DNA of 64,000 bases from Clostridia bacterium (GTDB lineage: Bacteria > Bacillota > Clostridia > Oscillospirales > CAG-382), in NCBI GenBank assembly GCA_017620655.1, contig JAGAUT010000079.1, forward strand, positions 3,635 to 67,634. Direction: 5' to 3'. This document shows positions 11,491-44,670 of this stretch, piece after piece. Within the stretch, counting starts at the first letter, position 1, and the number at the start of each line of letters is the position of its first letter. A model generated the notes under the pieces. The model was not told the origin of the DNA and searched no databases. It worked only from the letters and a program-made list of their open reading frames with translations. Position numbers and translations under genes: made by a program.

Positions 11491-11506
11491 AGTATTTCTC
11501 CTATAT

Positions 11507-12964
11507 TTATATGCTCTTTTTTTTATAAATAACAGTCAATAGGTATTGGAAAGATGAGTTTTTTGTCAACACAGATAGCAAAATATACACTGCCACACCG
11601 ACCACTACCTGAGACACTATGAGTACATAATCATTTTCGATCACAAGCGATACGCTCCACACAGCAACAGACATTAAAAGGGTTGACAAAGAATTAGGAA
11701 TCAAATCCATAAGCTGTTCTTTATAAGAATAGTTTATAAGTTTTGTATTGGGATACATATTTATCAACGAAGATAAAACTGCAATCAGTAGACCGCCATA
11801 TGCAACGTATAGCGCATCGTCAAAAAAAACAATTGAAAGAATAAGAACAATTATTCCTAAAGCTTTCTTCACTATCTCAAGTTTCAAGAAGACATCGCTT
11901 CGTCCCATAGCATTTATTACCTGTGCATTTGCAGTCTGCAACGGAGTCAACATATATATGAGCGCATTAATTACCAAAAATGGCACACAAGGAAGCCATA
12001 CATCGGTTATGAGTATTGAAACAAGAGGTTTAGACACTATACAAAGACCGGCAAGCAAAGGAAATACAACAAACGAACTAACCCTTACAGACAAGCTGAG
12101 TTGTTGCTTTAACCTTTGAGGATCATTCTGTGCTTTAGAATAAACCGGAAGCATAACGTTATCAATAGTTGTATTTATATTAGATATAATAAGGTGCGGG
12201 AACTGCTTGCCTTTATCATAATAAGCAAGAGTAGCACTATTGTACTTCTTGCCAATCACAAGGCTTCTCAATTCATTATATCCGGTACTTATTATGTTAG
12301 CAATCAAAATCTTATAGCCATACTTTAGCAACGGTTTGACTTGCTTTACAGAAGACACTCCGTTAGGAACCCACCTCGTAGCGACTTCCATCGCAATTAA
12401 TGCTACTGCCTGATTCGCAATGTGCTGATACACTAAAGCCCAAACACCATATCCACAGTAAGCTAATATAATACCAACTATTCCAGACACGACACTGGCA
12501 ACTATATTACAAAGGCACAGCACATTAAACTTCATTTCTTTTGCAAGCTTTGAGTTGAGCACCGTTGTGCCTGCACCAAAAAACAACGAAAGCGACATAA
12601 CCTGCAAAGTCTGTTCTACTATTGGCATATCGAAAAACTCAGCAATAAACGGAGCACTTACGTACAATGTGACGTATAGTACCGTTGCCAGCGCAATACT
12701 GACATACAACACAGAACTATAATCGTTATTGTTCACATTCTTTTTCTGTATGAGTGCTGTGCCAAGACCGCTCTGTACAATAACCTGAGAAAGCGTTATG
12801 AAAATCAGCAATACCGACAAAACTCCATACTCTTCAGGCAATAGCATTCGAGCTAAAATCATCGACACAACAAACGATGAAATTTGCGCCCCGCATCGTT
12901 CTACGAATTTCCATATAAGTGCGACAACCACGCTGTTTTTACTTATCGAATCATTTTTTGACAC
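11507..12964 (-). CDS. wzx: Polysaccharide flippase (WzxC family)
   Basis: About 12-14 TM; LARMLLPEEYG, ALIQKK, VIGKKY motifs. Confidence 0.9.
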   Translation of the reverse strand: MSKNDSISKNSVVVALIWKFVERCGAQISSFVVSMILARMLLPEEYGVLSVLLIFITLSQVIVQSGLGTALIQKKNVNNNDYSSVLYVSIALATVLYVTLYVSAPFIAEFFDMPIVEQTLQVMSLSLFFGAGTTVLNSKLAKEMKFNVLCLCNIVASVVSGIVGIILAYCGYGVWALVYQHIANQAVALIAMEVATRWVPNGVSSVKQVKPLLKYGYKILIANIISTGYNELRSLVIGKKYNSATLAYYDKGKQFPHLIISNINTTIDNVMLPVYSKAQNDPQRLKQQLSLSVRVSSFVVFPLLAGLCIVSKPLVSILITDVWLPCVPFLVINALIYMLTPLQTANAQVINAMGRSDVFLKLEIVKKALGIIVLILSIVFFDDALYVAYGGLLIAVLSSLINMYPNTKLINYSYKEQLMDLIPNSLSTLLMSVAVWSVSLVIENDYVLIVSQVVVGVAVYILLSVLTKNSSFQYLLTVIYKKKSI

Positions 12965-12974
12965 AATTATCTCC

Positions 12975-13952
12975 TTAGGTGTTTGAATAATACTTCTCCA
13001 TAACAGTTATCAGATTATTCAGGTGTTCAGAAAATTTACAACTGACCCTTTTATATACTTCTGTTTTTTTTATATCACAAAACTGCTTATAATAGTTTTT
13101 GTAGAGCTCAGAAGATATTATACTTTCCTCCGCTTCAACAATGACAGGGCTTCTGAATATTCCCAAATGGATACCGTGATGAGGTCTATAAGCTGCCTTG
13201 GAAGCATCTGTTTCAATATTGTAAGGCAAGCCTGTTGATAATTGACAATCGTTAAAACCCGCATCCATAACAAGATCCCGAAGCATAGCTTCATTGTTAA
13301 AAGAACAGAGATTATATCTATTTGATTTTCCTACTGCAAGAAGATTCAGTTCATCATAAAAATCGTCAATGACCGACTTCACTTTTGCATAATACTCTTT
13401 TGTAAGAACAAAGTGAAGCCCTGAAAGCTTAATAACAGGCTCATTCTTGCCAAAATAATACTTTAATGACTGCAAAGGACCAAACTTTATGACATTTCTT
13501 GCAATAATTCTTGGATTAAATCTTCTTTTTCCTGCCGCTCTGCTGATATTGCTGTACGGAGCTCCCACAATTTGACAATGAAGCTTATGCTGTTCAAACA
13601 AGGGCTTGTCTTCTCGGCAAATCAAGAGATCTATATCACCAATATAAATAGCTTCATAATCAAGAAAAGCCTCATCATAAAACAACCATCTTTGACAGCG
13701 CTGAATCTGCTGGATCGATATTGCCTTTTTTGTAAATTTGGTATGCTCTGCATAATTCTCTACAACATATATTCCGCCGTAATACTCGGAAAGAATATTG
13801 ACAGCTTCTCTTGTATCTTTATTGAGCGTTTTATCAATATACAATCTAATATGGTAATCGGGATAACTTTCTTTCAAAGAAATTATATACAAAGGTATGA
13901 ATCCCTGATACTTTTCTCCGTGTATATAATTTACAACACAAAGTTTATTCAT
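12975..13952 (-). CDS. Hypothetical, possible GT-A-fold transferase
   Basis: YIGDIDL DxD motif after a beta strand; lies inside the polysaccharide cluster; GGAGA RBS favours ATG 13952. Confidence 0.55.
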   Translation of the reverse strand: MNKLCVVNYIHGEKYQGFIPLYIISLKESYPDYHIRLYIDKTLNKDTREAVNILSEYYGGIYVVENYAEHTKFTKKAISIQQIQRCQRWLFYDEAFLDYEAIYIGDIDLLICREDKPLFEQHKLHCQIVGAPYSNISRAAGKRRFNPRIIARNVIKFGPLQSLKYYFGKNEPVIKLSGLHFVLTKEYYAKVKSVIDDFYDELNLLAVGKSNRYNLCSFNNEAMLRDLVMDAGFNDCQLSTGLPYNIETDASKAAYRPHHGIHLGIFRSPVIVEAEESIISSELYKNYYKQFCDIKKTEVYKRVSCKFSEHLNNLITVMEKYYSNT

Positions 13953-14373
13953 TGCCACCGTCTCCAATTTCCTTAGCAGGGGCACTGACAACAGTACTTC
14001 CGGGTTTTACGCTCTTTACAACCAGAGCTCCCCCCCCGATTTTTGAATTCTCACCTATTGTTATATCTCCCAGAATTGTAGCATTAGCACCAACAAAAAC
14101 CCCATCCTTCAAGACAGGCCCCTCAGAGGAATTACGATTTCCGATAGTTACATTTTGATATATTGTACAGTTTTCACCAATTTTACTGCTACTGTTAATT
14201 ACAACACCGAGAGCATTGTGGGGAAAATTTACTGTAGGAGCTATTTCACAAGTATAGGGTATAACACACGAATACATAAATCGCATATATCGATATATCA
14301 TTACTGAAACAAACTGCATTTTATGCAAATAAAACCACCTTGCACGTCTCTGCAATTTTGTTATTTTATTCAT
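13945..14373 (-). CDS. CysE-like hexapeptide-repeat O-acetyltransferase
   Basis: FPHNALGVVI, IYQNVTIG, VGANATILG LbH repeats. Confidence 0.85.
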   Translation of the reverse strand: MNKITKLQRRARWFYLHKMQFVSVMIYRYMRFMYSCVIPYTCEIAPTVNFPHNALGVVINSSSKIGENCTIYQNVTIGNRNSSEGPVLKDGVFVGANATILGDITIGENSKIGGGALVVKSVKPGSTVVSAPAKEIGDGGNE

Positions 14374-14377
14374 TATT

Positions 14378-15577
14378 TCACTTTCCTTCATTTGCTTCTT
14401 TTTTTATCAAACTCGCAATAGCAAAACATAATGCCAACAATACATATGTAAACTTATTTAGAAGGGTGGTTGTCGTTATATCGTTAACAAACGTCATTAA
14501 AGTTATAAATACAAGCAATGGTGCCATATTATTCTTGTAAAAATGCTTTACACCTACAATCAAAAAGTAGACGTATGCGCCATACCAGAACGACAACCCG
14601 ATTATGCCAAAACTCACTGCAATTTGGATATAATTGTTATGGGAAGGGTGAAAACTACCGAACGTCTGTTCAAACAACAAACCATATTGCTCTATGCCGT
14701 ATCCCAAAATCGGTCTTTCTTTGATTTTTTCTAAGCCAAAATCTATATATAACTGTCGTTTTATAGTTGATGTATCTTTTCCTTGCAACGCATCATCAAA
14801 TCTATTCAAAACAAGCTCCATTACCCCTAAACGGTATAAAATAAATGCTAACAACGCAATAATTGCCAAAGCAAAAGCTGCTCGCGTAATCAACTTTTTT
14901 TTATCTTTCAGTGCAATCAACAAGAAAGTCGCTACTAAAAGCAAAAGTAAGCACTTCTTTGACCCTGACATCAACCCCATCAATACAGGCAGTGGCAAAA
15001 AGACAATTTGCCACCTCTTTTTGTTGTATATAAATTGATAAAGAGCAAAAGCAAAAACTATGGCACTGTAATATCCAAATGCATTTTCCTGATTTACGTT
15101 GCCTCCGATTCTCACCTCATCAGCAAGCATACTCAAAACCCCATCGATACCGATAGTTGCAAATGTATAAAAATACATCACGTAACCCGAAAAAATAATG
15201 GAATTGATAGTAAAACTTACTTTATACGGTGTATCAATTATAACATTCGCAAATATACACAAAATGATGAGTTGCACTAGTGTTATAATCTTTCCTGTTC
15301 CGTATGTAACATCCATAGACCATGACAAAGAAGCAAATGCCAATAAGAAAAGACCAAACAGCCACAAAACAGTACCGTTGACATAAAATGCACGCTTTTC
15401 CGTCAAAATATAAAGAAAACTGCAGGCACACATCACAAAAAACGCTGCTTGCGAGATTATATTCAACTCTTCATTTGAACTAAAAACAAAAACAGTTGCA
15501 ATGTATATAGCAAGTGAAAATATTGCCATATTCCCCGTTGTCCAAGACCATTTTTGTTTTCTCTGAATATTATCCAT
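14378..15577 (-). CDS. wzy: O-antigen polymerase/ligase family membrane protein
   Basis: About 10-11 TM; SGSKK, RP-ILGYG, SHNNYIQ motifs. Confidence 0.8.
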   Translation of the reverse strand: MDNIQRKQKWSWTTGNMAIFSLAIYIATVFVFSSNEELNIISQAAFFVMCACSFLYILTEKRAFYVNGTVLWLFGLFLLAFASLSWSMDVTYGTGKIITLVQLIILCIFANVIIDTPYKVSFTINSIIFSGYVMYFYTFATIGIDGVLSMLADEVRIGGNVNQENAFGYYSAIVFAFALYQFIYNKKRWQIVFLPLPVLMGLMSGSKKCLLLLLVATFLLIALKDKKKLITRAAFALAIIALLAFILYRLGVMELVLNRFDDALQGKDTSTIKRQLYIDFGLEKIKERPILGYGIEQYGLLFEQTFGSFHPSHNNYIQIAVSFGIIGLSFWYGAYVYFLIVGVKHFYKNNMAPLLVFITLMTFVNDITTTTLLNKFTYVLLALCFAIASLIKKEANEGK

Positions 15578-15585
15578 TATTTCTT

Positions 15586-16686
15586 TTAACGCCTTTCAAT
15601 AATATCTATCCACTGCTTTGTAATAGCCTCACCCGAGAACAGCTCTTTTGCCTTTTCTCGTGAAGCCTTCCCCATTCTTTCAAGCTCCTCTTTGGGAGTT
15701 TCAATGAGTTTTACCAGTGCTTCTTTTATGCTTTCTACGCTGTTCGGATCACAAAGATATCCGTTATCAGTTACAAGCACATCATAATCCGATACTTTAC
15801 TCATAACAACGGGACGTCCTATGGTCATCGCTTCGCAGATTGTATTGGGCAATCCCTCAACCGTGCTGAAAAGACCAACAGCGTCGCTTTGTGACATAAT
15901 TTTATAAATCTCACTTGTTTCGTGGTTTAAGTGCAAAACTTCAGAGAGACTGTAGTCCTTTACCATTTGTACGGCTTTATCATAAATTTCAGTATCACCT
16001 GTTGTAACCTCGGCTCTACCATACCAATCTATTACAAGCTTTGCTTTCTGTTCATCCGAAAGCATATTAACAGCTTCAATAACCGCAAGCGGATTTTTAA
16101 GTCCCTGATAGCTGGCTGCAACAGCAAGCCTTACCTTGCCGTTTTCACAGTATTCATGGTCTTGTGACACATATTCATCAGGAACAAGAATGTGATTATA
16201 AATTACCGAGTATTTATCATTATACTGCGGATAGTATTTCTGCCACATCCTTATGGCGTTCCATGAGTTACCAACCTTTGCATCAGAGAATCTTTCAAAA
16301 AAATTAAAGATTTTGTTTCTGCGAGAAGTAAATGTAGAAATCTTTGCACTTCTTTCGGTGGTTATCAGCTTCCACTTTTTATGACCAATTTTAGAAAAGC
16401 AGGAAAGAAAACATGGTGTTTCAAGAAACGCAGCAACAACATCAGCACCTGATTTATTGAGATACCTACGGATACTCATCATTCTTGAAATGATGCTTTT
16501 TGTTTCAAGAAGAGTAACAGGTATTTCATTTTCATCAAGCATTGGCTTATAAAACGGCATATTGTAATACACAAGCACGCTGACATCATACCCTGCCTTT
16601 TTTAAAAGCAATGCAACGTTTACAACCTGTCTTTGTGCTCCGCCTGAGCCAAGATTGTCAATAAAGAAAATTACTTTTTTCATCAA
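15586..16686 (-). CDS. Glycosyltransferase family 4
   Basis: LGSGGAQRQ; EGLPNTICEAM (EX7E). Confidence 0.9.
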   Translation of the reverse strand: MMKKVIFFIDNLGSGGAQRQVVNVALLLKKAGYDVSVLVYYNMPFYKPMLDENEIPVTLLETKSIISRMMSIRRYLNKSGADVVAAFLETPCFLSCFSKIGHKKWKLITTERSAKISTFTSRRNKIFNFFERFSDAKVGNSWNAIRMWQKYYPQYNDKYSVIYNHILVPDEYVSQDHEYCENGKVRLAVAASYQGLKNPLAVIEAVNMLSDEQKAKLVIDWYGRAEVTTGDTEIYDKAVQMVKDYSLSEVLHLNHETSEIYKIMSQSDAVGLFSTVEGLPNTICEAMTIGRPVVMSKVSDYDVLVTDNGYLCDPNSVESIKEALVKLIETPKEELERMGKASREKAKELFSGEAITKQWIDIIERR

Positions 16687-16700
16687 AACAAACCTTCTTA

Positions 16701-17675
16701 TTAAAGATTCGCCTTATACCACTCAATAGCCTCAGCAAGACCTCTTGCAAAATCATAATCGGGGTCATAGCCGAGAAGGTTTCTTGCCTTTGAAATGTCA
16801 GCATTTGAGTGCTTGATATCGCCCTTACGGTCAGGACCGAAGTTAGGTTCAATATCAACACCAAGTGCCTTTGTAAGGCTATAGTAAATATCAATAAGGT
16901 ATTCTCGTCCGCCGTATGCTACATTGAATGCCTGACCTGCCGCTTCATGAGGAGCAAGGCAAGCCTTAAGATTTGCTTCAATTACGTTTTCGATATATGT
17001 AAAGTCTCTTGACTGCTTACCGTCGCCGTTGATTGTGGGCTGCTCACCCATAATGAGCATCTTGATAAACTTAGGAATTACTGCTGCATAGAAGCCGTGA
17101 GGATCCTGACGTCTGCCAAATACGTTGAAGTAACGAAGTCCGTATGTATCAAGACCGTAGTGCATTGTATACTGCTTTGCCCATTCTTCATCACATCTCT
17201 TTGTAAGAGCGTAAGGTGAAAGAAGGTTACCCTCTCTGCCTTCTGTTTTTGGAAGGTTGGGTTCATCGCCGTAAACAGAAGAAGATGAGGCATATACAAA
17301 CTTCTTAACGCCGTTCTGTCTTGCTGCTTCCATCATATTGAGTGTACCCTGAATGTTATTTGCGCAGTAGAAAAGGGGCATCTCAATGGAACGGGGTACG
17401 CTTCCCCACGCCGCCTGGTTGAGAACGTAATCTACGCCCTCACAAGCCTTCATACAAGTATCCAAATCCTTGATATCACCCTTCACAAATTCATAATTTG
17501 GGTTATCGGCGAACATATCAACATTTGCCTGCTTACCTGTAGAAAGGTCGTCAAGGCATCTAACCTTATATCCCATATTAAGAATAGCTTCGCAAAGGTT
17601 TGAGCCGATAAAGCCGGCACCGCCCGTTACAAGAAATTTTGCGTTTTCAGGAAACTTTAAATGCTTATATCCCAT
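16701..17675 (-). CDS. tviC: UDP-GlcNAc/GlcNAcA 4-epimerase (WbpP/TviC-type SDR)
   Basis: TGGAGFIGS, AAWGSVPRS, YALTK, YFNVFGRRQDP..YAAVIPKF. Confidence 0.85.
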   Translation of the reverse strand: MGYKHLKFPENAKFLVTGGAGFIGSNLCEAILNMGYKVRCLDDLSTGKQANVDMFADNPNYEFVKGDIKDLDTCMKACEGVDYVLNQAAWGSVPRSIEMPLFYCANNIQGTLNMMEAARQNGVKKFVYASSSSVYGDEPNLPKTEGREGNLLSPYALTKRCDEEWAKQYTMHYGLDTYGLRYFNVFGRRQDPHGFYAAVIPKFIKMLIMGEQPTINGDGKQSRDFTYIENVIEANLKACLAPHEAAGQAFNVAYGGREYLIDIYYSLTKALGVDIEPNFGPDRKGDIKHSNADISKARNLLGYDPDYDFARGLAEAIEWYKANL

Positions 17676-17694
17676 TTTTATTTACTCCTTAATC

Positions 17695-20079
17695 TTAATA
17701 CATTACTACAGAACCGTGAGATGCAGAATACACATTCGCAGCTCTGTCAAATCCATATTTATCATAATATTTTTCATTCAAAACAGAAATTATGCTGTCA
17801 GCCTTTGCCTTTTCAACAAGTGCCACAACGCATCCGCCTAGACCTGCACCAACAAGCTCGCTTCCGAGAACGCCGTCTGTTTCGTTAAGGGTGTCGCAGA
17901 GGTAGTCGATTTCAGGCGTTGAACAGTCATAAGCACCATACTGAAGTGCAACATCGGCATTATCCTTTGAAAGCTTGTCCAGCATTTCATCGGTAACTTT
18001 AAGACCTGTGAGTCTGTCGCCGTTATGGCTTATCTTCATCATTTCGCCAAGTTCTGTGTACTTTCCTTCACGAAGAAGCTGCATACATCTGTCGGCTCTT
18101 ACACATTCCGAAATACCGTAAAGCGATACTGCTCTCAAATCGTAAACCTCAGGGTCAGCATGGCTCATGAAAATCTGCTTGATTCTGTCGGAATACTCGG
18201 GAAGCATCATCTTGATACCGCCCCTTGTCATTGTTTCGGGAATTGATTTTAAGATATCATAAATCTTGCTGTAGGGTCTTACCTTTGCAAGGTCTCTAAA
18301 CTCAACAAAGCCGTATTCGGGATAAAGACGCTTTATCAGCATAAGTGCAAATTCATATGAGGCAACCTTTGCATTGAACTTATCCTTACTGCCTTCAGAC
18401 TTCTTTGCCTTAATCATGCTGTTTGCAACAATTACTGCATATTTATCCGAAAACTCGGCATTTTCACCCACTTCAAAGGGTTTAAAGCCAAGGTGGACAA
18501 TTCTGTCTGCCTTTCCGCATTTCATTGCCGCATGGTCGCCGGCACCGCCTCTGGAACCAACAAACCATTCGCCTTCACCGCAAAGGGTAATGAAATCCTT
18601 GTCAGAAATGTTGAGACAGTTAAGTGCAACAACCGCTTCCATTGTAGAAACAACTATACTCGAAGAAGACGAGAGACCTGCCGCAACGGGAATTGTACCA
18701 CTTGCCGCCATATCCATGCCGCAAAGTGGCATTTCGTTATCAAACTGAACTCGAATTACTGCACTCTTTACGTAGTTTGACCAACAGCCGCCACTTTCCT
18801 GAAGCTCACGAACCACTCTTTCATCGTCGAGATAGTCGAGCCACTTATCATATTTCTTTTCGCCGAGAACACGACCTATTGAGAAGGTTTTATCAGGGAA
18901 AGAAGGGTCTAAATTTGTAATACTTACCATATCATCATCACGGGAAGCAGATACAAAAACTATATCCTTGTCGGTTGCCATAACATTGATGCCGCCGCCT
19001 CTGTGGTCAATGTGTCTGCCCATGAGATTTACTCGTCCGGGTGAACGGGTAATTACAACCTTTTTATCGCCGTACTTTTTCATAAAATGACTGAGAAGCT
19101 CTATGTATCTTGCCTTTTGCATCTCAGCGGTATCGCTGTAAAGCATCTTGAATTTATCGTCAAATGCTCCATCTTTGATATCAGAAACAAACTGAGAAGC
19201 CGTTCTCATAAAGTGCTTGCTGATTTCACAAAGTTCAGGCTTTGTACTGTAGGTGAGCATATCCTCTTTGGACTTTACAACGTAAATCTCAGCATCGTTA
19301 TTTGATGCAAACTTTTCGAGCGCATCTGTAAGATAAATCTCACCCTGTGCATTGTTTGAACCGATGTTTTCAATAACCTTTACTGCCTCATCAACGTCAA
19401 AGCAGTAAAGACCTGCGTTTGCATACTTTGAATTTATAACTTCATCTGCACCAAAGGTCTTGCCGCAAAGAGTAACTGTACCGCAAGGCTTTTTCTCGAG
19501 TGCCTTCTTAAGCACCTTTTCTGCTTTTTTAGCGTTAAGTCTTGTGGATTTTAGCACCTCTGCATAATCCTTTTCATCGGCATCCGCGAGCTTCATAAGC
19601 GCTGCATCCGCAAACTCTACAACACCGTAAGGCTTTTCATTGACAGTTACAACTCGTCCTCCGTTGAAATTTGCAGACAGGGGTTGTACTCCCCATACCG
19701 CCTTTGCGTCTTCCGCCTTTTCAAGAAGATCGGCAATTACCGGAGTAGATATTATTTTGTCGCCCATTGAAATGATAACGGGTCCCGAATAGCCTACCGT
19801 CTGAAGGGCCTTCAAACCGCACATTGCAGCATGACCGGTACCCTTCTGTTCCTTTTGATAGGCATACACAACGCCCTCTACTCCGTCAAGACAGTCCATT
19901 ACGCTGTAAGCATTGTGACCGATAACGATAACAAAGCGGGAAACACCTGCCTGTCTCATGTTATCAATTATTCTTCTTATTGTAGGGGTGCCTGCACAGT
20001 CAAAACAAACTTTATTCTTAGAGTCGTCATTCATTCGTGTGCCTTTACCCGCACACAGAATTATTGCAGCAGCATTCAT
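17695..20079 (-). CDS. Bifunctional GlmU-like uridylyltransferase / GHMP galactokinase-like sugar-1-kinase fusion
   Basis: N-terminal ILCAGKGTRM, QKEQKGTGHA, NNAQGEIYLTD; C-terminal SPGRVNLMGRHIDHRGG, PVAAGLSSSSS, GAGLGGC. Confidence 0.85.
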   Translation of the reverse strand: MNAAAIILCAGKGTRMNDDSKNKVCFDCAGTPTIRRIIDNMRQAGVSRFVIVIGHNAYSVMDCLDGVEGVVYAYQKEQKGTGHAAMCGLKALQTVGYSGPVIISMGDKIISTPVIADLLEKAEDAKAVWGVQPLSANFNGGRVVTVNEKPYGVVEFADAALMKLADADEKDYAEVLKSTRLNAKKAEKVLKKALEKKPCGTVTLCGKTFGADEVINSKYANAGLYCFDVDEAVKVIENIGSNNAQGEIYLTDALEKFASNNDAEIYVVKSKEDMLTYSTKPELCEISKHFMRTASQFVSDIKDGAFDDKFKMLYSDTAEMQKARYIELLSHFMKKYGDKKVVITRSPGRVNLMGRHIDHRGGGINVMATDKDIVFVSASRDDDMVSITNLDPSFPDKTFSIGRVLGEKKYDKWLDYLDDERVVRELQESGGCWSNYVKSAVIRVQFDNEMPLCGMDMAASGTIPVAAGLSSSSSIVVSTMEAVVALNCLNISDKDFITLCGEGEWFVGSRGGAGDHAAMKCGKADRIVHLGFKPFEVGENAEFSDKYAVIVANSMIKAKKSEGSKDKFNAKVASYEFALMLIKRLYPEYGFVEFRDLAKVRPYSKIYDILKSIPETMTRGGIKMMLPEYSDRIKQIFMSHADPEVYDLRAVSLYGISECVRADRCMQLLREGKYTELGEMMKISHNGDRLTGLKVTDEMLDKLSKDNADVALQYGAYDCSTPEIDYLCDTLNETDGVLGSELVGAGLGGCVVALVEKAKADSIISVLNEKYYDKYGFDRAANVYSASHGSVVMY

Positions 20080-20085
20080 GTTTTT

Positions 20086-21402
20086 TTACAGCCTCCAATA
20101 GAGATATCCGGCATTTTCGTATGCCTTTCTGTCAAGAAGTCCCTTGATATCGAGAAGTACCTTTCTGCCTTCGCCGAAGAACTTATCCATATCGCTCATT
20201 GTAAAGTGTGAGAAGTTTTCGTGGGCAACCGCAAGAACAACCGCATCCATGTCCTTAACAGTATCAATATCGACAAAGTCAACACCGTAGAGATGCTTTG
20301 CCTCAGCAGCATCTGCCTGAGGGTCGGCAATAGTGGGTTCAATACCGTATTCACGAAGTTCTTTTACTATATCAAAAATCTTGGAGTTTCTTGTATCGGG
20401 GCAGTTTTCCTTGAAGGTAAAGCCAAGAATTGCAACCTTTGCATTCTTAACCGCCTTTTCAGCCTTAATAAGGCTCTTTACTACGTTTTCGGCAACGTAT
20501 TTACCCATATCATCGTTTATTCTTCTACCTGCGAGAATAACCTGGCTATGGTAGCCCATCATTTCTGCTTTGTATGTAAGATAGTAAGGGTCAACACCGA
20601 TACAGTGACCGCCTACAAGACCGGGATAGAACTTAAGGAAATTCCACTTTGTTCCTGCCGCTTCAAGCACGCTCTTTGTATCAATACCCATTTTATTAAA
20701 GATAATCGAAAGCTCGTTCATGAAAGCAATATTAATATCTCTCTGGCTGTTTTCAATTACCTTTGCAGCTTCTGCAACCTTGATTGCGTTTGCTCTGTGT
20801 ACGCCTGCTTCAACAACAAGCTCATACACCTTTGCCACAATATCAAGTGTTTCATCGTCCATACCCGAAACAATCTTGATAATTGTTTCAAGTCTATGTA
20901 CCTTATCACCGGGGTTAATTCTTTCAGGAGAATAACCAATCTTAAAGTCAACACCGCATTTAAGTCCTGATTCCTTTTCAAGTATCGGTACGCACACATC
21001 CTCTGTAACACCGGGATAGACTGTAGATTCGTATACAACAACGCTTCCCTTTGTAAGGTTTCTGCCGAGGATTCTGCTTGCACCTTCAACGGGTGAAAGG
21101 TCGGGAGTATGGTCATCATATACGGGTGTAGGAACGGCAACAATGTGGAACTTTGCTTCTCTGAGCTTTGTTTCGTCTGCCGTAAATTCAACTGTTGTAT
21201 TCTTAATAGCTTCGTCGCCAACTTCATTTGTGGGGTCGATGCCTGATTTATAGAGTTCTATTTTCTTTTCATTAAGGTCATAGCCGACAACCTTTACCTT
21301 CTTTGCAAATGCAACGGCTATAGGCATACCTACGTAGCCGAGACCTACAAGGGATATTTTTTCTTGTCCGTTTACTATTCTTTCGTAGAGGTTTGTGTAC
21401 AT
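20086..21402 (-). CDS. tviB: UDP-N-acetyl-hexosamine 6-dehydrogenase (TviB/WbpO/CapL type)
   Basis: VGLGYVGMP, YESTVYPG, SPERINPGD, GGHCIGVDPYYL, FKENCPDTRNS. Confidence 0.9.
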   Translation of the reverse strand: MYTNLYERIVNGQEKISLVGLGYVGMPIAVAFAKKVKVVGYDLNEKKIELYKSGIDPTNEVGDEAIKNTTVEFTADETKLREAKFHIVAVPTPVYDDHTPDLSPVEGASRILGRNLTKGSVVVYESTVYPGVTEDVCVPILEKESGLKCGVDFKIGYSPERINPGDKVHRLETIIKIVSGMDDETLDIVAKVYELVVEAGVHRANAIKVAEAAKVIENSQRDINIAFMNELSIIFNKMGIDTKSVLEAAGTKWNFLKFYPGLVGGHCIGVDPYYLTYKAEMMGYHSQVILAGRRINDDMGKYVAENVVKSLIKAEKAVKNAKVAILGFTFKENCPDTRNSKIFDIVKELREYGIEPTIADPQADAAEAKHLYGVDFVDIDTVKDMDAVVLAVAHENFSHFTMSDMDKFFGEGRKVLLDIKGLLDRKAYENAGYLYWRL

Positions 21403-21443
21403 ATTAAGCTTCCTTTCTGAATTACAACTTCTATTTAAACTAA

Positions 21444-21967
21444 TTATTCATCTTTCAAACGCGATTTTATAACCTTTGCGGGCACACCCGCAGCAACGGA
21501 ATATGCAGGTATATCCTTTGTTACAACGGCTCCTGCCCCAATCACACAGCCATCACCGATATTAACTCCCGGCATAATTATTACTCGTCTGCCAAGCCAT
21601 ACATCGTTGCCTATTGTAACGGGTCTTTCTGCGGTGTCACCCTGATCCATCATCGGAGCATCAATGCTGTCAAATGTATGTCCGCTTGTATAAATCACAA
21701 CTTCGGGTCCCATCATAACACAGTTGCCGATTTTTACACTTCCATTAATCTCGCAGTTTATTCCAATACCCGAACGGTCTCCAAGTTCAAGCCCCGGGGT
21801 AAAACTTGCATTGTGTTCTATATTTACGTCTTTACCGCATTTTGAGATAATCCTGCGTGCAAAAAAACTCTCAATTTCTTGGCAAACGCCATATGTCTGC
21901 TTTGAGGCAGCCATGAGGCAAACATCTGATACAAAATATACAGTATTTTTGTTTTAGCAGTCCACAT
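21444..21967 (-). pseudogene. LbH O-acetyltransferase frameshifted at a T7 homopolymer (possibly phase-variable or an assembly error)
   Basis: RBS GGAG + ATG at 21967 gives MWTAKTKILYILYQMFASWLPQSRHMAFAKKLR. One extra T in the tract at 21861-21867 joins this to FFARRIISKCGK...VTIGNDVWLG...GVPAKVIK. Confidence 0.75.
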
Positions 21968-22003
21968 ACCTGTCTCCATTCCGTTACACATAAGTACTCA
22001 ATT

Positions 22004-23041
22004 TCACATTCTGTCAATCAGCACCTTTATTGCAACATCAGATTTAAACTTCTGTGCCTCAAATAAAGCACTTGATTTCATTTTCAAAAACTCATCAGGA
22101 TTCTCAGCTACTTTTTTTAACAAATCCGTCAATGCATCAACATTTTCAAATTCGTACCCCCATCCGGTAACATTTTCACTGAAAACATCACTGTAATTAA
22201 GCCAAAGAGATGTTATAACAGGAACGCCTGCGGAATATGCATCAATTAAAGTTCCGGGTATTCCTTCAGTATAAAACCTTGTAGGAAAAAGAAGGGCAAA
22301 ATAATCTTTTAGTACTTCTACACTTTTATCATACTCAACAATGCCGCGGTAACTTACAAAACCGGTGAATTCTTTTTGCAGGTTTTGGAACCATTCAATC
22401 TGAGAAACGTCTATCTGACCAAATATATCAAGAGTATACACGGTTCTTCCGTAATGTTCATTGACTCTTTTTACGGCAGTTATTGCATCCTCTATTCCTT
22501 TTTCTTTCATAACCCGAGAAAAAGTACATAGTTTATAAGGCTCGGTCTGCGCATACACAAGTTCTTTCTCGCTTAGTGGTGTTAACTCTTTAAAATTAGG
22601 CATTACTCTGACATTTTCAAAGCCCATCTCTTCAAGTGATCTTTTCATTGTTGATGTTTCAACATATATACCATCAAGTTTTCTAAGAGTATTGGTCAAA
22701 GATTTTTTATTCTTCAAAAAAGCTGCCAACCATCCACCGATAACAACATAGTGAATACGTCTTTTATAAAAACGATTCAAGAATTGCAACAATGCCGGAA
22801 CTATTCTAAGGCTGTTGTGTGCAGGAAGAATTACAACATTCTCACACTGTTTTAAAGCCAACCGTGAAAAAAACGGCAGTTTTAATAGAAAATTTTTCCC
22901 GCCATAGGTATCAATTTTCAAAACTTCATTTTCACCGAATTCTTTTTCAAGAGCCGCGGTCACCGATTTAGTTTTAACCGTCTGTCCGTCCAAAAACTCC
23001 TTGTTTCCGCCAAAATGACCTATTACAGCCGTCCTAATCAT
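22004..23041 (-). CDS. Glycosyltransferase family 4
   Basis: FSRVMKEKG; EGIPGTLIDAY. Confidence 0.85.
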   Translation of the reverse strand: MIRTAVIGHFGGNKEFLDGQTVKTKSVTAALEKEFGENEVLKIDTYGGKNFLLKLPFFSRLALKQCENVVILPAHNSLRIVPALLQFLNRFYKRRIHYVVIGGWLAAFLKNKKSLTNTLRKLDGIYVETSTMKRSLEEMGFENVRVMPNFKELTPLSEKELVYAQTEPYKLCTFSRVMKEKGIEDAITAVKRVNEHYGRTVYTLDIFGQIDVSQIEWFQNLQKEFTGFVSYRGIVEYDKSVEVLKDYFALLFPTRFYTEGIPGTLIDAYSAGVPVITSLWLNYSDVFSENVTGWGYEFENVDALTDLLKKVAENPDEFLKMKSSALFEAQKFKSDVAIKVLIDRM

Positions 23042-23060
23042 AAGCTAATGCATCCCTATA

Positions 23061-24080
23061 TTAAATTAATTTGTGAGTATATCCTTTGTCTCTATACTTC
23101 TTATCAAACAGCTTTACTATACCGCAGAGCGAACCGAAGCCGTATGATATATGAAAAACAGGAAAAAGTATAAACAAAGTCAAAAACTCTTTTACAGAGG
23201 AGGTCTGTTTTAACGAAAACAAAGCATCCAATGAAAAGTACAAAACAAGTTCAAGTCCAAGACCAATCCAAAAGATATAATGCAAAAGTCCGAGAAGTGA
23301 AAATGCCAAAACCGATGCAACAAATGCAAAAGGAATAAAATGCCGGATTCCCATAGAACCTGGACAAAGTTTCATTGTGATAACATTCCACATACCGTTT
23401 ATAAAAGCCATCCTCGAAATACCTTTTACTGTATCTCTGCAATAATACGATAAATGTATATCGTTGGATAAATATATTTTTCCGCCGTTTTTACGGATTC
23501 GGTAATTCATTTCATTGTCCTGATTACGTATGAGACGTTCATCATAACCGCCGTATTTTGAGAAAACCTCACGTTTAAACGCCCCAAACGGCACAGTATC
23601 AACATATCCGCTTTCACCGTTTGTGCGAAACTGTGAATTGCCAACACCGAATTTTGAAGAAAGCATCTTTGCAATAGCTCCACCCATAAATCCATTTGCC
23701 TTCGTTTCAGCAAGACCACCAACATTTTCAGCATCTGTATTTTCAAGATAATAAACACACTTTGAAATGTAGTCACTTGCATAGTCCGAATGTGCATCAA
23801 GACGAACTATATACTTTCCTTTTGATGCCGAAATTCCTATATTCATTGCAAACGGAACTATTTTATGAGGATTGTTAAGCACCTTTATAAGTTTAGGATA
23901 TTTTTCACCATATGTCCTCAGAATCTCAACAGTTCTGTCCTTCGAACAACCATCTATAAAAATCCACTCCATGTTTTCAGCAGGATAATCCTGAAGAAGA
24001 AGCGATTCAATACATTTATCTATGTACTTTTCCTCATTATAAACCGGCATCACTACCGAAACCACAATTGTTTCGCTCAT
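23061..24080 (-). CDS. Glycosyltransferase family 2 (ExoA-like)
   Basis: VSVVMPVYNEE, IDGCSKD, RLDAH, DTVPFGAF, RNQDNE. Confidence 0.9.
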   Translation of the reverse strand: MSETIVVSVVMPVYNEEKYIDKCIESLLLQDYPAENMEWIFIDGCSKDRTVEILRTYGEKYPKLIKVLNNPHKIVPFAMNIGISASKGKYIVRLDAHSDYASDYISKCVYYLENTDAENVGGLAETKANGFMGGAIAKMLSSKFGVGNSQFRTNGESGYVDTVPFGAFKREVFSKYGGYDERLIRNQDNEMNYRIRKNGGKIYLSNDIHLSYYCRDTVKGISRMAFINGMWNVITMKLCPGSMGIRHFIPFAFVASVLAFSLLGLLHYIFWIGLGLELVLYFSLDALFSLKQTSSVKEFLTLFILFPVFHISYGFGSLCGIVKLFDKKYRDKGYTHKLI

Positions 24081-24832
24081 TATTTCACCTTTTCAATTTC
24101 GTTATGAACCTCGGTTTTAACAGGTGCCACATAATCACCCTTATATTCCTTACCGAGAACCGCAAACACAGTCATAAACATAATCTTAATATCACCGAAA
24201 AAGCTAAATTCCTTAATCGCCTTAAGATTATAGTACATTTTGCCCGGAAGCACATCTTCCACATATACCTTGTCGGCATCCTCTGCATTATCCAAAAGTT
24301 CAGCTTCGTCTTTATAATAGATGCTTGCAAGACTTGTAACTCCGGCAGGCAAAAGAAGCGTTGCCATCATTTCGGGTGTATACTGCTTTGTATACCTTTC
24401 AACCTCAGGTCTTGTACCTACAAAAGTCATTGTTCCGCGCAACACGTCGATTAGCTGGCATAGTTCATCAAGTCTGCACTTGCGTATAAACTTGCCGACC
24501 TTTGTAATTCTCGAATCTTCTCCGACAGTGACAAGAGAGCCTTTGTCGGCATTCTGTACCATTGAACGGAATTTGAAGATTCTGAATTTTTTGTTATATT
24601 GCGTAAGTCTGACCTGTCGGTAAAAGACGGGGCCCTTACTGTCGATCTTTATGGCTGCAGCAAGAACAACAAAAACAGGAGAAAGAATTATAAGCATTAC
24701 AAATGACACAACAATGTCAAACACCCTCTTGAAGAATAGACTTAGTCTTTTCTTTTTCAAAACATCATAATACTCTCTGACTTGCTCAGTCTGCATCTCG
24801 GCGGGAAGCTTTTCCCATTTTTTTAAAAGCAT
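24080..24832 (-). CDS. Priming phosphoglycosyl transferase (Spr1655/WcfS-like AATGal-1-P transferase)
   Basis: KRVFDI, FKFRSM, RLDEL, VGTRPEV; the N-terminal KWEKLPAEMQ is characteristic of the pneumococcal teichoic-acid priming enzyme group. Confidence 0.85.
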   Translation of the reverse strand: MLLKKWEKLPAEMQTEQVREYYDVLKKKRLSLFFKRVFDIVVSFVMLIILSPVFVVLAAAIKIDSKGPVFYRQVRLTQYNKKFRIFKFRSMVQNADKGSLVTVGEDSRITKVGKFIRKCRLDELCQLIDVLRGTMTFVGTRPEVERYTKQYTPEMMATLLLPAGVTSLASIYYKDEAELLDNAEDADKVYVEDVLPGKMYYNLKAIKEFSFFGDIKIMFMTVFAVLGKEYKGDYVAPVKTEVHNEIEKVK

Positions 24833-24833
24833 A

Positions 24834-26036
24834 TTATATGTACTCTTTCAAAATTCTCGTATAGTTTTCAATCACATAATCCATTTCTTCATCAGTAAGT
24901 TTTGTATGAAGCGGGAGTGTAATTTCATTTTCAAAATACTTGTACGCATTAGGATAATCCTTGATATCAAAGCCGAGATTCTTATATGCAGTGTGCATTG
25001 GCAGAGGCTTGAAATGAACATTTGTTGAGATGCCACATTCTGCCATCTTTATAATAATCTCGTTTCTCTGTTCAAGACTTACACCGGGTATTCTTGTCAT
25101 ATAAAGATGTCCCGAAGACTTATAATCATCTGTGTAATGATTGAGAACTCCAATTCCGAGAGGCTCAAATGCTTTATTATACCTAGCAATCATTGTCTTT
25201 CTTCTCTCAAGCATACCGCCGTAGCGTTCAAGCTGCTTAAGCCCGATTGCCGCCATGATATCCGTCATATTGCACTTAAACCAAGGACCGACAACATCAT
25301 ATTCCCACGCACCAAGTTGTGTCTTAGCCAAAGCATCCTTGCTTTGTCCGTGAAGCGAGAGTAACTGAAGCTTTTTATAAATATCCTCATTGGAAACACC
25401 GTCAATTGTTCTCCAGGTAAGAGCACCGCCTTCGGCTGTTGTAAAATTCTTTACTGCATGGAAGGAAAAAGCGGTAAAATCGGCGACATTACCAATCATT
25501 CTGCCCTTATATTCAGCACCAAGAGAATGTGCTGAGTCTTCAAGGATAATAACTCTTCCGATTGCCTTTTGAATCTCATTATTGGGCTTAAACAGGTGCT
25601 TTTTTCTCTCGACAATTTCAAAAATCCTGTCATAATCGCAGGGAACACCGCCGACATCTACAGGGATAATAACCTTTGTCTTTTCTGTAATAGCCGCTTC
25701 AAGTTCATCGTAATTCATTTGTAAATTATCCTTCTGGGAGTCCACAAGAACAATTTTTGCACCCACATGGTCAATTACAGATGCAGAAGCCGTATATGTA
25801 TATGCGGCAGTGATAACCTCATCACCTGCACCTACACCGAGCAAGCGCAATGTCATTTCCGCACAGGCGGTCTGAGAGTTAAGACATACGCATTTTTCGG
25901 TACCGATCCACTCGGCAATATTCGCTTCAAGCTTTTTTGTTCTCGGACCTGTTGTAATCCAACCGGAGCGCAATGCTTCGGCAACTTCGCTGATTTCAAG
26001 TTCTGTTATATCAGGAGGTGAAAATGGTATATTCAT
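24834..26036 (-). CDS. aatB: DegT/DnrJ aminotransferase, AATGal-forming type (Spr1654/AatB/WcfR-like)
   Basis: MNIPFSPPDITE, SFHAVKNFTTAEGG, SLHGQSKDALAK, KCNMTDIMA, NVHFKPLP. Confidence 0.8.
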   Translation of the reverse strand: MNIPFSPPDITELEISEVAEALRSGWITTGPRTKKLEANIAEWIGTEKCVCLNSQTACAEMTLRLLGVGAGDEVITAAYTYTASASVIDHVGAKIVLVDSQKDNLQMNYDELEAAITEKTKVIIPVDVGGVPCDYDRIFEIVERKKHLFKPNNEIQKAIGRVIILEDSAHSLGAEYKGRMIGNVADFTAFSFHAVKNFTTAEGGALTWRTIDGVSNEDIYKKLQLLSLHGQSKDALAKTQLGAWEYDVVGPWFKCNMTDIMAAIGLKQLERYGGMLERRKTMIARYNKAFEPLGIGVLNHYTDDYKSSGHLYMTRIPGVSLEQRNEIIIKMAECGISTNVHFKPLPMHTAYKNLGFDIKDYPNAYKYFENEITLPLHTKLTDEEMDYVIENYTRILKEYI

Positions 26037-26205: not shown

Positions 26206-26235
26206 AAAAAAGCAAAACCCGAAGGTTTTGCTTTT
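26206..26235 (-). terminator. Rho-independent terminator ending cluster A
   Basis: AAAAGCAAAACC-CGAA-GGTTTTGCTTTT hairpin. Confidence 0.85.
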
Positions 26236-27403
26236 AATACAACGATTCAAGTCCAATTTTTTCAAAGAGCAACGATACGTCATCTTTGTTCTTTTCAGAC
26301 ACGTCATTATTCAGTGAGATTTCCTTTGACGCATATCCGATTCGTCCGCCAAATGCAATTCTGCACCATCTTCTCAGCTGATAAATCGGTGTGAGATATT
26401 TCTTGCCTTTCAGTCCGGGATATGTTATTACAAGATGTTCATATGGCATGAAAATTCGGGAAAGAATATATGAAACCCTGCTCTTTTTCCGTCTGCTTGC
26501 CGCAATCTGATTTTTCTTTGTTCCATACACACCGCCGTCAAGAAGGTACTTCTGGTAAAGGAGTGTTGTTTCGTCATGCTCTCCGTCACCAAACCAGACC
26601 TCTGACAGCCTGAGACTTTCATAATAGAAGGTCTTGATTTCGCAAATTTCAAGCATGGAACAAAGCTTGCTTTCATCAAGCTCAATCTTGTTTTTCAAGA
26701 GATACATGTCAAGAAAATTTCTGATGCTGCATCCCCCGCCGGCTACATGATAAGACAGGTGTGCCGCAATCTGGAACATGAAAAATTCATTCGTCAGCAC
26801 GTATTCATAAGAGCCGTTATTCTTAGGTAAAGCGTAATCCCACACCCGCGTGAGAAGGGTGTCGACATTATTTCTGTTTTCCTTGATGTTAAAGTGCAGT
26901 TCGAGATGCACATCGTCCTCGGAATAGAGGGAAACATCATGATAGTCCCTCACGCCTTTCGAGGTAAAACCAAGCTTTTCAACAATTGCCTTTTCGGCTC
27001 TGTCGAGGTCTTCTTCATGCACAAGAATGTCAATATCGCAGCTTGTTCTCATCCACGGTTCGGGATAAAAATTCCTGATTACCGCACCCTTCAGCGGAAT
27101 AAACGGAATTCCTTCCTTTTCAAGAAGTTCTGAAATATTGACAAGTGCAAGATTCAAATTTTCATATCTCATGACAGACATGGCATTCTGCTTTATGAAC
27201 TCAAATGCAACATTCTCATCAGACACGGAAATTTCGCTGATTTTATATGCGTAATCAAGCAGATGCGCCATGTCGTGATGTCTTGCCATTTTATAAAGAA
27301 GCTCGGCCTCACGCCCTGCTTCCTGCTTTGCCTCTTCACTCATTTCTTCGCCGAGAACGGCGTTACGGATGAGGGCAAAAAGGGTATTTATCTCTTTTCT
27401 CAA
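26234..27403 (-). CDS. Nucleotidyltransferase family protein (NTP_transf_5), last gene of cluster A; paralog of 10315..11490
   Basis: PLKGAV...YPEPWMRTSCDIDILVHEEDL shared with the paralog; TTG start. Confidence 0.85.
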   Translation of the reverse strand: MRKEINTLFALIRNAVLGEEMSEEAKQEAGREAELLYKMARHHDMAHLLDYAYKISEISVSDENVAFEFIKQNAMSVMRYENLNLALVNISELLEKEGIPFIPLKGAVIRNFYPEPWMRTSCDIDILVHEEDLDRAEKAIVEKLGFTSKGVRDYHDVSLYSEDDVHLELHFNIKENRNNVDTLLTRVWDYALPKNNGSYEYVLTNEFFMFQIAAHLSYHVAGGGCSIRNFLDMYLLKNKIELDESKLCSMLEICEIKTFYYESLRLSEVWFGDGEHDETTLLYQKYLLDGGVYGTKKNQIAASRRKKSRVSYILSRIFMPYEHLVITYPGLKGKKYLTPIYQLRRWCRIAFGGRIGYASKEISLNNDVSEKNKDDVSLLFEKIGLESLY

Positions 27404-28606: not shown

Positions 28607-28619
28607 GTTTCTTTATCTC

Positions 28620-29132
28620 CTAAAGTTTATATGTTCTGTTTTCTATTACCTGCCCTGCTTCGACCTTCATAAAGGCAGGGATTCTGTTTTCCGCTTTAAC
28701 TATTGCACCAAGGCACACATGAACGCCCTTTTCAATAACACATCCGTGGTCAACAATTGCACCGCAGTTGATTATACAGCCTTTTTCAATCACTGTATCT
28801 GTATTCACCATGGCATTGGGAAGCACAACAGTACCTTTGTTAAGGCTTGCCTTAGGGCTGATATAGGCAGTTTTATGCACAATTATCGGGATATTTGCAC
28901 CTTTTTCTTCCAGCTTTTCAATGAAAGAGAGGCGTGATTGGTTATTGCCGAAAGCAGGATATATTTCTGTATCGTCTGAAATGAACTTTTCAAAATCCGC
29001 ACATTTTCCGACAACATTGTCAGCAACCTTATTGTCATCGAGAAATACAATTCTTTCGTATTTTCCCGACTGTTCTGCAACATCGCACACCGTCTGTCCG
29101 TATCCGCCGGCACCTATTATTACTAAAGTCAT
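28620..29132 (-). CDS. PglD/NeuD-like acetyltransferase (short)
   Basis: IIGAGGYG, FLDD, AFGNN, LbH repeats with IVDH. Confidence 0.75.
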   Translation of the reverse strand: MTLVIIGAGGYGQTVCDVAEQSGKYERIVFLDDNKVADNVVGKCADFEKFISDDTEIYPAFGNNQSRLSFIEKLEEKGANIPIIVHKTAYISPKASLNKGTVVLPNAMVNTDTVIEKGCIINCGAIVDHGCVIEKGVHVCLGAIVKAENRIPAFMKVEAGQVIENRTYKL

Positions 29133-30328: not shown

Positions 30329-30337
30329 AATATCTCC

Positions 30338-44662: not shown

Positions 44663-44670
44663 GTATTCCC

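Follow-up and report, generated by a model that had tools for sequence, protein, structure and literature searches.

We analyzed a stretch of 64,000 nucleotides from a Clostridia bacterium (contig JAGAUT010000079.1 of assembly GCA_017620655.1; hereafter the window) and found that one gene, located at positions 17695-20079 on the minus strand, joins a GlmU-type nucleotidyltransferase to a galactokinase-like GHMP kinase. The 794-residue fusion protein very probably acts as an anomeric sugar kinase and a sugar-1-phosphate uridylyltransferase, which together convert a free sugar into a uridine diphosphate (UDP)-sugar for the surrounding polysaccharide locus. The sugar is likely of the N-acetylhexosamine (HexNAc) class, be it neutral or oxidized, as suggested by the genomic partners of the fusion, its GlmU-like sugar site and its likeness to GALK2. 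Our leading candidate, held with a confidence just short of even, is an N-acetylhexosamine 1-kinase/UDP-HexNAc pyrophosphorylase that acts on neutral N-acetylgalactosamine (GalNAc) and/or N-acetylglucosamine (GlcNAc) and feeds the locus. Both reactions, the use of uridine triphosphate (UTP) and the identity of the sugar are predictions; what our analysis documents is how the domains are arranged, which catalytic residues are conserved, the operon layout, the family-wide gene partners and the accessory distribution of the gene.

The gene is a single open reading frame (ORF), its stop codon included in the coordinates above, and the plus strand is full of stops in this region. In Pfam searches, an NTP_transf_3/NTP_transferase domain covers residues 5-271 of the protein, followed by GalKase_gal_bdg (residues 331-376), GHMP_kinases_N (residues 435-522) and GHMP_kinases_C (residues 667-772). 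Neither a hexapeptide/LbH domain nor a fucokinase family is found among its Pfam matches. This agrees with the initial annotation, which had described one 794-residue frame combining a GlmU-type uridylyltransferase that lacks LbH with a galactokinase-type GHMP kinase. The AlphaFold2 model is confident and comprises two domains (predicted local distance difference test score (pLDDT) 93.5, predicted TM-score (pTM) 0.91), connected by a helical linker of residues 291-336 (positions 19072-19209; all features of the gene lie on the minus strand), with helices at residues 294-302 and 307-336. An N-terminal pyrophosphorylase and a C-terminal GHMP kinase are hence found on one polypeptide. We aligned 47 fused relatives, which share 30-74% identity with our query; the residue counts given below refer to this alignment unless stated otherwise. 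Both catalytic centers look intact when judged from their sequences, although each domain scores under the curated NCBIfam equivalog cut-offs.

The nucleotidyltransferase domain (residues 1 to ~290, positions 19210-20079) aligns with solved GlmU uridyltransferase domains (E 4e-20). Its nucleotide-binding signature LCAGKGTRM (residues 8-16, positions 20032-20058) aligns with L-x-A-G-x-G-T-R-M in GlmU, with Arg-15 present in 40/47 and Met-16 in 43/47 relatives. Lys-23, Gln-75, Gly-80, Thr-81, Asp-107, Gly-141, Glu-155 and Asn-221 are conserved across the alignment and align with the GlmU uridyltransferase site. The L-x2-G-x-G-T-x-M signature and the sugar- and uracil-site residues of a GlmU uridyltransferase are thus in place. 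Among NCBIfam models, GlmU scores best for this domain (115 bits, compared with 42 for RmlA and 36 for GalU), but only the N-terminal ~160-240 positions of the GlmU models are matched, with 76-115 bits against cut-offs of 367-718 (the best match, 115 bits, has a cut-off of 718). The protein is not a full-length GlmU, as it lacks the LbH acetyltransferase domain and stays below the equivalog cut-off. The GlmU alignments stop at residue 160 and restart at residue 219, which marks an insertion of ~58 residues relative to GlmU (residues ~160-218, positions 19426-19602), modeled by AlphaFold2 as three helices and a hairpin. The metal- and sugar-site Asp-107 is invariant (47/47) and is followed by a family-specific Lys-108 (both at positions 19756-19761). 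Position 108 is Lys in 37/47 and Arg in 6/47 relatives, and is thus basic in 43/47, whereas the aligned GlmU structures have a Thr there (GDt).

The kinase domain (residues 337-794, positions 17698-19071) is GalK/GALK2-like. Its closest solved structure by sequence is human GalNAc kinase (PDB 2a2c, E 6e-27), which is also the best Foldseek match of the modeled kinase half (E 3.4e-26, target TM 0.79); Foldseek matches are restricted to GALK2, Gal1p/Gal3p and GALK1. PDB entry 9ulx, termed 'AbGHMP', matches the kinase weakly (E 7e-8). The domain is not a galactokinase proper: it does not have the G-E-H-x-D-Y signature, and it scores 163 bits with the gal_kin model TIGR00131, under the cut-off of 226.65. 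The hallmarks of the GHMP superfamily are all present. The phosphate-binding loop of motif II reads PVAAGLSSSS (residues 464-473, positions 18661-18690), with Pro-464, Gly-468, Ser-472 and Ser-473 invariant in the 47 relatives, and motif III reads GAGLGGC (residues 744-750, positions 17830-17850), with Gly-744, Gly-746 and Gly-749 invariant. The catalytic Arg/Asp pair is formed by Arg-349 (47/47) and Asp-515 (45/47). Asp-515 aligns with the catalytic Asp of GalK and resides in the loop GSRGGAGDH (residues 508-516, positions 18532-18558), which corresponds to teGGgmDQ in GALK2.

Kinase motif I, RSPGRVNLMGRHIDHRGG (residues 345-362, positions 18994-19047), aligns residue by residue with PGRVN(I/L)IGEHIDY of human GALK2 and yeast Gal1p and Gal3p, with Arg-355 taking the place of the glutamate. 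The GRHIDHRGG core, which the initial annotation had placed around 18990-19025, is located at positions 18994-19020. The arginine is a genuine feature of the motif, as had been proposed: Arg-355 is found in 46/47 aligned relatives, next to His-356 (47/47) and close to Asp-358 (42/47, with Glu in 4), and it is present in 54/54 fused genomic copies. The family signature at this position is G-R-H-[IV]-[DE]-H-[RQ]-G-G. Standalone kinases of the family vary at position 355 (9 Arg, 3 Val, 1 Lys, 1 Met and 1 Thr), and Met, Val, Thr and Lys also occur among the database representatives, as expected for a residue that determines specificity. A second family-specific arginine, Arg-510, lies in the catalytic loop five residues ahead of the catalytic Asp, where GALK2 has a Glu; it is conserved in 42/47 relatives, and an Arg is found at this loop position in 157/163 family ORFs. 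We take the motif glutamate of GalK to contact the sugar C6 hydroxyl, and the residue after the transferase Asp presumably touches the sugar O4/O6, as in RmlA; our literature search returned no paper on these contacts. If they hold, each active site of the fusion has gained a positive charge close to C6, which is the strongest argument for an acidic sugar.

The fusion gene is flanked by two candidate enzymes of UDP-HexNAc metabolism, and its position between a tviB-like dehydrogenase and a tviC-like epimerase had been recognized in the initial annotation. The gene for a TviB-like nucleoside diphosphate (NDP)-HexNAc 6-dehydrogenase ends 6 nucleotides upstream (positions 20086-21402, minus strand; best model TviB, 473 bits, cut-off 592). 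A 324-residue WbpP/TviC-like 4-epimerase for UDP-HexNAc or the corresponding uronic acid (HexNAcA) is encoded 19 nucleotides downstream (positions 16701-17675, minus strand; best model TviC, 293 bits, cut-off 760). Both junctions contain a GGAGG/AAGGAG ribosome-binding site. The epimerase matches the structure of WbpP (PDB 1sb8, E 1.4e-96) much better than that of a UDP-glucuronic acid 4-epimerase (PDB 6zl6, E 1.8e-40), and it has a Ser aligned with a WbpP position that we assume to be the 'gatekeeper' for N-acetylated substrates. The three genes are part of a cluster at positions 10315-26036 (minus strand) that encodes an aminotransferase, an initiating Bac_transf transferase, GT2, GT1 and GT4 family glycosyltransferases, acetyltransferases, Wzy, a flippase and an NTP_transf_5 protein, and this gene content is that of a Wzx/Wzy polysaccharide locus.

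In the pathway we propose, the C-terminal GHMP kinase would use ATP to phosphorylate the anomeric hydroxyl of a free sugar, and the N-terminal GlmU-type domain would convert the resulting sugar 1-phosphate and UTP into a UDP-sugar. The adjacent 4-epimerase would interconvert the UDP-HexNAc product, which in the locus of the window could also be oxidized by the adjacent dehydrogenase. The UDP-activated uronic acids of GalNAc and GlcNAc (UDP-GalNAcA/GlcNAcA), along with UDP-GalNAc, would then serve the glycosyltransferases of the Wzx/Wzy cluster.

A HMMER search of 1.84 billion representative sequences returned 401 clusters, defined at 50% identity, that reach E<=1e-30; among species-representative genomes, no fewer than 423-498 stretches matched relatives. 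The family comprises fusions of ~770-1000 residues, longer fusions and standalone kinases of ~500-560 residues, and in one locus (L169) a split version has separate nucleotidyltransferase and kinase genes. Public annotations read 'hypothetical', 'NTP transferase domain-containing' or, in automatic Joint Genome Institute (JGI) annotation, 'N-acetylgalactosamine kinase', and neither the homolog search nor the ESM Atlas yielded a functional name beyond such automatic labels. The carriers are nearly all metagenome-assembled genomes (MAGs), from gut and rumen Clostridia, Kiritimatiellia, Lentisphaeria, Verrucomicrobiota, Planctomycetota, Acidobacteriota, Chloroflexota and Armatimonadota. Many of them belong to the Planctomycetes-Verrucomicrobia-Chlamydiae (PVC) group or are other degraders of complex polysaccharides, and the family is widespread in degraders of plant and algal polymers. 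Among 31 related genomes, the fusion is present in 5 (4/14 in the genus, 0/5 in other genera of the family and 1/12 in other families of the order). The patchy presence among relatives defines the fusion as an accessory gene, here with a Wzx/Wzy location, and this distribution is as expected for a locus-specific supplier of a precursor.

We considered whether the fusion replaces a housekeeping GlmU and rejected this idea: it occurs in only 4/14 genomes of the genus, and all 14 carry another protein with NTP-transferase, LbH and mutase-like parts. A canonical GlmU above cut-off was detected neither in the genome of the window nor elsewhere in the genus (0/14), and 3/31 relatives have one. In the window's own genome the alternative protein lies outside the window (G000:C2:16560-18845; locus L035:1-2286). 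It has ~775-800 residues, and its C-terminal part weakly resembles archaeal phosphoglucosamine mutase; it may be the UDP-GlcNAc (or GDP-mannose) enzyme of the lineage. The only other GalK-like gene of this genome (G000:C23:43043-44350; L036:1-1308) reads GRSEISGNHTDHNHG, with an Asn where aligned galactokinases have the Glu, and stays under all galactokinase cut-offs. A GalT of either type was not found in this genome.

We surveyed the neighborhoods of 96 family loci by tblastn with the window's own proteins. An upstream flank of at least 1.4 kb was available in 81/96 loci and a downstream flank of at least 1.1 kb in 79/96, and the neighbor counts are therefore minima. The commonest neighbor is a WbpP-like epimerase (at least 62% identity), found in 18/96 loci, 15 times within 150 nucleotides of the fusion. 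A TviB-like dehydrogenase (at least 63% identity) occurs in 10/96 loci, always within 97 nucleotides. Both genes together are present in 6/96 loci, and either one in 22/96. The same order emerges from the immediate same-strand neighbors in 144 non-redundant loci, where a short-chain dehydrogenase/reductase (SDR) cluster ranks first (20 genes) and a dehydrogenase cluster second (10 genes). Among the latter are the dehydrogenases of the N-acetylmannosamine dehydrogenase (ManNAc-DH)/TviB class that follow two distant fused copies (L110 and L116). All adjoining dehydrogenases belong to the HexNAc class, with TviB or ManNAc-DH as best matches, and none to the UDP-glucose dehydrogenases. The family is thus tied to HexNAc-type 6-dehydrogenases far above chance, but the core conserved partner of the fusion is the 4-epimerase, not the dehydrogenase. 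We then inspected ten genomes chosen because they contain the fusion-epimerase pair and no adjacent dehydrogenase. One of them had an adjacent copy after all (L002), another only a 32%-identical match with an internal stop (L039), and no TviB-like dehydrogenase was found at E<=1e-30 in 8 of the 9 fusion-epimerase genomes without an adjacent copy, a count for which genome completeness is not given.

Other arrangements were also found. In the fused locus L070 and the split locus L169, Arg-355 is kept and a canonical GalE gene follows directly (438-450 bits, cut-off 262); our searches of these two genomes detected neither type of GalT. NagA-like deacetylases (209-233 bits, cut-off 226) follow the fused copies L091 and L103 of Acidobacteriota and the standalone copy L132 of Armatimonadota. 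A GlmU-like LbH gene lies just upstream of L132 and of a second Armatimonadota copy, L121. These two proteins show 47% identity and have the same kind of gene upstream, yet position 355 is Arg in L121 and Met in L132, and a full NagA-like gene is present only after L132, the amidohydrolase at L121 being a fragment. A standalone Val copy (L134) lies beside GDP-fucose-synthase-like and dehydratase-like genes.

The GalE and NagA partners point to a neutral C6, and the GalE, NagA and GlmU-like partners all use or produce derivatives of N-acetylhexosamines. Their contexts are no less compatible with a neutral N-acetylhexosamine than with a uronic acid. Several observations nevertheless weigh against neutral GalNAc or GlcNAc as the substrate. 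GALK2, Gal1 and Gal3, which bind neutral galactose or GalNAc, keep Glu-His in motif I, whereas the family has Arg-His almost without exception, and the basic pattern of Arg-355, Arg-510 and Lys-108 would be expected if the C6 substituent were anionic. Any bacterium has UDP-GlcNAc at its disposal, and the gain from a dedicated HexNAc salvage enzyme is thus not obvious. A uronate isomerase (UxaC) gene is found within 6 kb in 6/96 loci. In summary, genomic context favors neutral GalNAc/GlcNAc, and the motif favors an acid. It is possible, though doubtful, that all members of the family, which spans several hundred mostly uncultured bacterial lineages, are anomeric kinases/uridylyltransferases acting on a sugar whose C6 is anionic, either GalNAcA/GlcNAcA or galacturonic/glucuronic acid (GalA/GlcA), with Arg-355 and Lys-108 as carboxylate clamps. 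The first of these options, salvage of free GalNAcA or GlcNAcA, was the proposal of the initial annotation, and we consider it rather unlikely. Here, the kinase would produce the 1-phosphate, the transferase UDP-HexNAcA, and the epimerase would set C4, with the TviB-like dehydrogenase providing a parallel de novo route. The three family-specific basic residues, the variation of standalone relatives at exactly position 355, the tight dehydrogenase-fusion-epimerase synteny in the window and in 6/96 loci, and the N-acetylated class of both flanking enzymes are all consistent with it. The initial annotation had, however, asked whether homologs with GRHIDH co-occur with tviB/tviC, and since the motif is found throughout the family, it shows no correlation with dehydrogenase neighborhoods. 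The arginine is present whatever the context, including the copies linked to GalE and NagA, and the Armatimonadota Arg and Met copies share their GlmU-like upstream gene, with the full NagA-like gene restricted to the Met copy. In the 8/9 fusion-epimerase genomes lacking a TviB-like dehydrogenase, UDP-HexNAcA would hang wholly on a rare exogenous sugar, and a source of free HexNAcA is not evident. The conserved arginine, the further basic residues and the link of the family to HexNAc-type 6-dehydrogenases support the proposal, and the missing correlation of motif and context weakens it.

The second acidic option is a common hexuronate such as GalA or GlcA, released for example from gut pectin or xylan and converted to UDP-GalA/UDP-GlcA, in analogy to the plant kinases GalAK/GlcAK acting with USP and to a zebrafish fusion enzyme. 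We regard it as quite improbable, even though the same basic residues, the abundance of the family in degraders of plant and algal polymers and the existence of a eukaryotic uronate kinase/pyrophosphorylase fusion, described in PMC3938481, are in its favor. Upstream of one Planctomycetota copy, an SDR gene weakly matches models for LegB, dTDP-glucose dehydratase and UDP-xylose synthase, each time below the cut-off, and UxaC lies directly downstream in three loci, together with a sodium:solute symporter (SSF) in L010 and L046 and without one in L012. We give the UxaC link little weight because the six loci collapse to ~3 lineages and unrelated genes intervene in three of the six (L041, L085 and L092). 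The epimerase is of the WbpP type, far from the solved UDP-GlcA 4-epimerase and with Ser at the presumed gatekeeper position, which makes free GalA, also suggested initially, a poor fit; in addition, the adjoining dehydrogenases are not UDP-glucose dehydrogenases, and the transferase retains the GlmU sugar-site residues. A different sugar is improbable as well, be it plain galactose, in a GalT-independent route of kinase, pyrophosphorylase and epimerase, or a hexosamine that is sulfated, phosphorylated or otherwise modified at C6. The fusion-GalE bicistrons in genomes where no GalT was found, the many carriers that degrade complex polysaccharides and a standalone Arg copy adjoining a sulfatase and a major facilitator superfamily (MFS) transporter would be explained, but the aligned galactokinases keep their Glu, most partners are of the HexNAc class and the sulfatase adjacency is a single case. 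The conserved arginines also raised N-acetylmuramic acid recycling, analogous to the AmgK/MurU pathway, which we rejected given that the recurrent partners are 4-epimerases and 6-dehydrogenases. Finally, it appears extremely improbable that one domain is catalytically dead and has a regulatory or scaffolding role. The sub-cut-off scores of both domains would allow for this, as would the zebrafish fusion, whose pyrophosphorylase activity could not be demonstrated by its authors according to PMC3938481. Yet every recognized catalytic or nucleotide-binding residue is kept, without exception or with very few, in relatives as little as 30% identical, the AlphaFold2 model is confident, Foldseek returns kinases, and the split version at L169 has the two domains on separate genes. 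An inactive kinase, contemplated in the initial annotation, is disfavored in particular by the (near-)invariance of Arg-349/Asp-515, GLSSSS and GAGLGGC. Neutral GalNAc and/or GlcNAc remains our preferred substrate, and in the window the neutral and the acidic assignment alike end with UDP-GalNAcA/GlcNAcA supplied to the glycosyltransferases.

We compared the fusion to known systems. Its kinase has PGRVN, H-x-D, GLSSS, the GG-x-x-D loop, GAG-x-GG and the long, eukaryote-like domain size in common with human GALK2 (PDB 2a2c/2a2d) and yeast Gal1p/Gal3p. It differs from these by its low sequence identity (~21-22%), by GRHIDH instead of GEHIDY, by the loop sRGGagDH instead of tEGGgmDQ and by the fused nucleotidyltransferase. 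A close known system is the eukaryotic salvage route formed by GALK2 and UDP-HexNAc pyrophosphorylase. With GlmU, the N-terminal domain shares the signature and the Lys, Gln, Gly-Thr, Asp, Glu and Asn positions; the missing LbH domain, the insertion, Lys instead of Thr after the catalytic Asp and the occurrence in 5/31 relatives, which is not that of a housekeeping gene, set it apart. The flanking genes are best matches to TviB and WbpP/TviC of the UDP-GalNAcA routes in Pseudomonas aeruginosa (WbpO/WbpP) and Salmonella (TviB/TviC). To our knowledge, these pathways have no kinase/pyrophosphorylase, whereas in the window one sits between both genes. Arabidopsis GalAK is a standalone eukaryotic enzyme that lacks the motif Glu, as does the fusion, but has Ala rather than Arg in its place; it continues with HIDHQGG, where the family has HIDH(R/Q)GG. 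Bacteroides Fkp has an N-terminal pyrophosphorylase and a C-terminal GHMP kinase, the same order as our fusion. The initial annotation had called the enzyme Fkp-like and named Fkp as the precedent for a fused salvage enzyme that feeds capsule synthesis; both the domain order and the location in a Wzx/Wzy cluster bear this out. The fusion is no member of the Fkp family itself, which combines a fucokinase-type kinase with a GDP-fucose pyrophosphorylase domain: its Pfam matches include no fucokinase family, and, going by domain families, its kinase is GalK-like, its transferase is GlmU-like and its nucleotide is probably UTP rather than GTP. PMC11982464 and PMC6468028 describe Fkp as an L-fucokinase/GDP-fucose pyrophosphorylase by which free sugar is salvaged for surface glycans. 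The zebrafish enzyme DrGKUP, a glucuronokinase/putative UDP-GlcA pyrophosphorylase, consists of an N-terminal bacterial-type nucleotidyltransferase and a C-terminal GHMP sugar-1-kinase and is described in PMC3938481 as salvaging a uronic acid; by this description it has the same layout as our fusion. In the literature that we searched, we found no account of a bacterial GHMP/GlmU-type fusion, of a bacterial HexNAcA or GalA kinase, or of UDP-GalNAcA salvage.

Further observations concern the partners and the surroundings of the fusion. In MAGs of Clostridia, Lentisphaerae and Bacillota (L016, L055, L058 and L077 compared with the window), the epimerase retains 80-90% identity, whereas the adjacent fusions share 42-57%; this reflects either extreme constraint or a recent horizontal spread of the epimerase alone. 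In a single lineage of rumen Clostridia (L010:10487-13507, L046:11486-14497 and L012:10428-11807), UxaC is encoded on the strand of the fusion, either after it or after its epimerase, the symporter gene precedes UxaC in L010 and L046, and no other Uxa/Uxu genes were seen in these three flanks. Standalone Val copies in two MAGs (L147:5574-8992 and L155:6815-10259) come after a DnaG primase gene and are followed by two genes for Cof-type haloacid dehalogenase (HAD) phosphatases. In a MAG from the rumen (L054:10353-12767) and a groundwater Verrucomicrobia MAG (L093:10723-13221), the fusion is followed after 40-53 nucleotides by a gene for a protein of ~800 residues; the L054 protein resembles an aceric-acid-hydrolase-like glycosidase (468 bits, below cut-off), and the L093 copy was assigned by BLAST clustering only. 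In the window, positions 10315-47258 form ~37 kb of back-to-back polysaccharide clusters, all on the minus strand, with three aminotransferase plus initiating-transferase starts (among them 24080-26036 and 44021-45903), two flippases and two PF14907 'uncharacterised nucleotidyltransferase' genes (10315-11490 and 26234-27403). PF14907 genes directly adjoin the fusion in several other loci. The genes at 27422-31390 have FnlA-, CapF- and 2-epimerase-like domain matches and may specify an N-acetyl-L-fucosamine (L-FucNAc) route. At 40376-43410 (minus strand), a 674-residue protein with an HpcH/HpaI aldolase-like domain and a GT4 glycosyltransferase is encoded beside a gene of the Ldh_2 (malate/L-lactate dehydrogenase) family, a combination that is unusual for a polysaccharide cluster. 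A 1222-residue protein with an N-terminal Tubulin_2 domain (PF13809) is encoded at 1321-4989 (minus strand), and the ORFs beside it, at 5024-7588 (854 residues) and 3-1286 (more than 428 residues), both on the minus strand, have no Pfam match.

Sugar-1-kinase/pyrophosphorylases such as Fkp are valued for the one-pot synthesis of nucleotide sugars, and they account for the display of scavenged sugars on the surfaces of gut bacteria. The family described here is large, and our literature search turned up no experiments on any of its members. Irrespective of the sugar used, the family would represent a new bacterial GHMP-based route to a UDP-amino sugar or a UDP-uronic acid and could provide a ready-made biocatalyst. 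If the substrate were an acid sugar, the fusion would add a missing salvage pathway, the first from uronic acids to UDP-sugars in bacteria, and gut and rumen bacteria could do without a dehydrogenase and still build acidic capsules, using sugar acids that they scavenge. The recurrent module of fusion and 4-epimerase looks like a GalT-independent, Leloir-like pathway.

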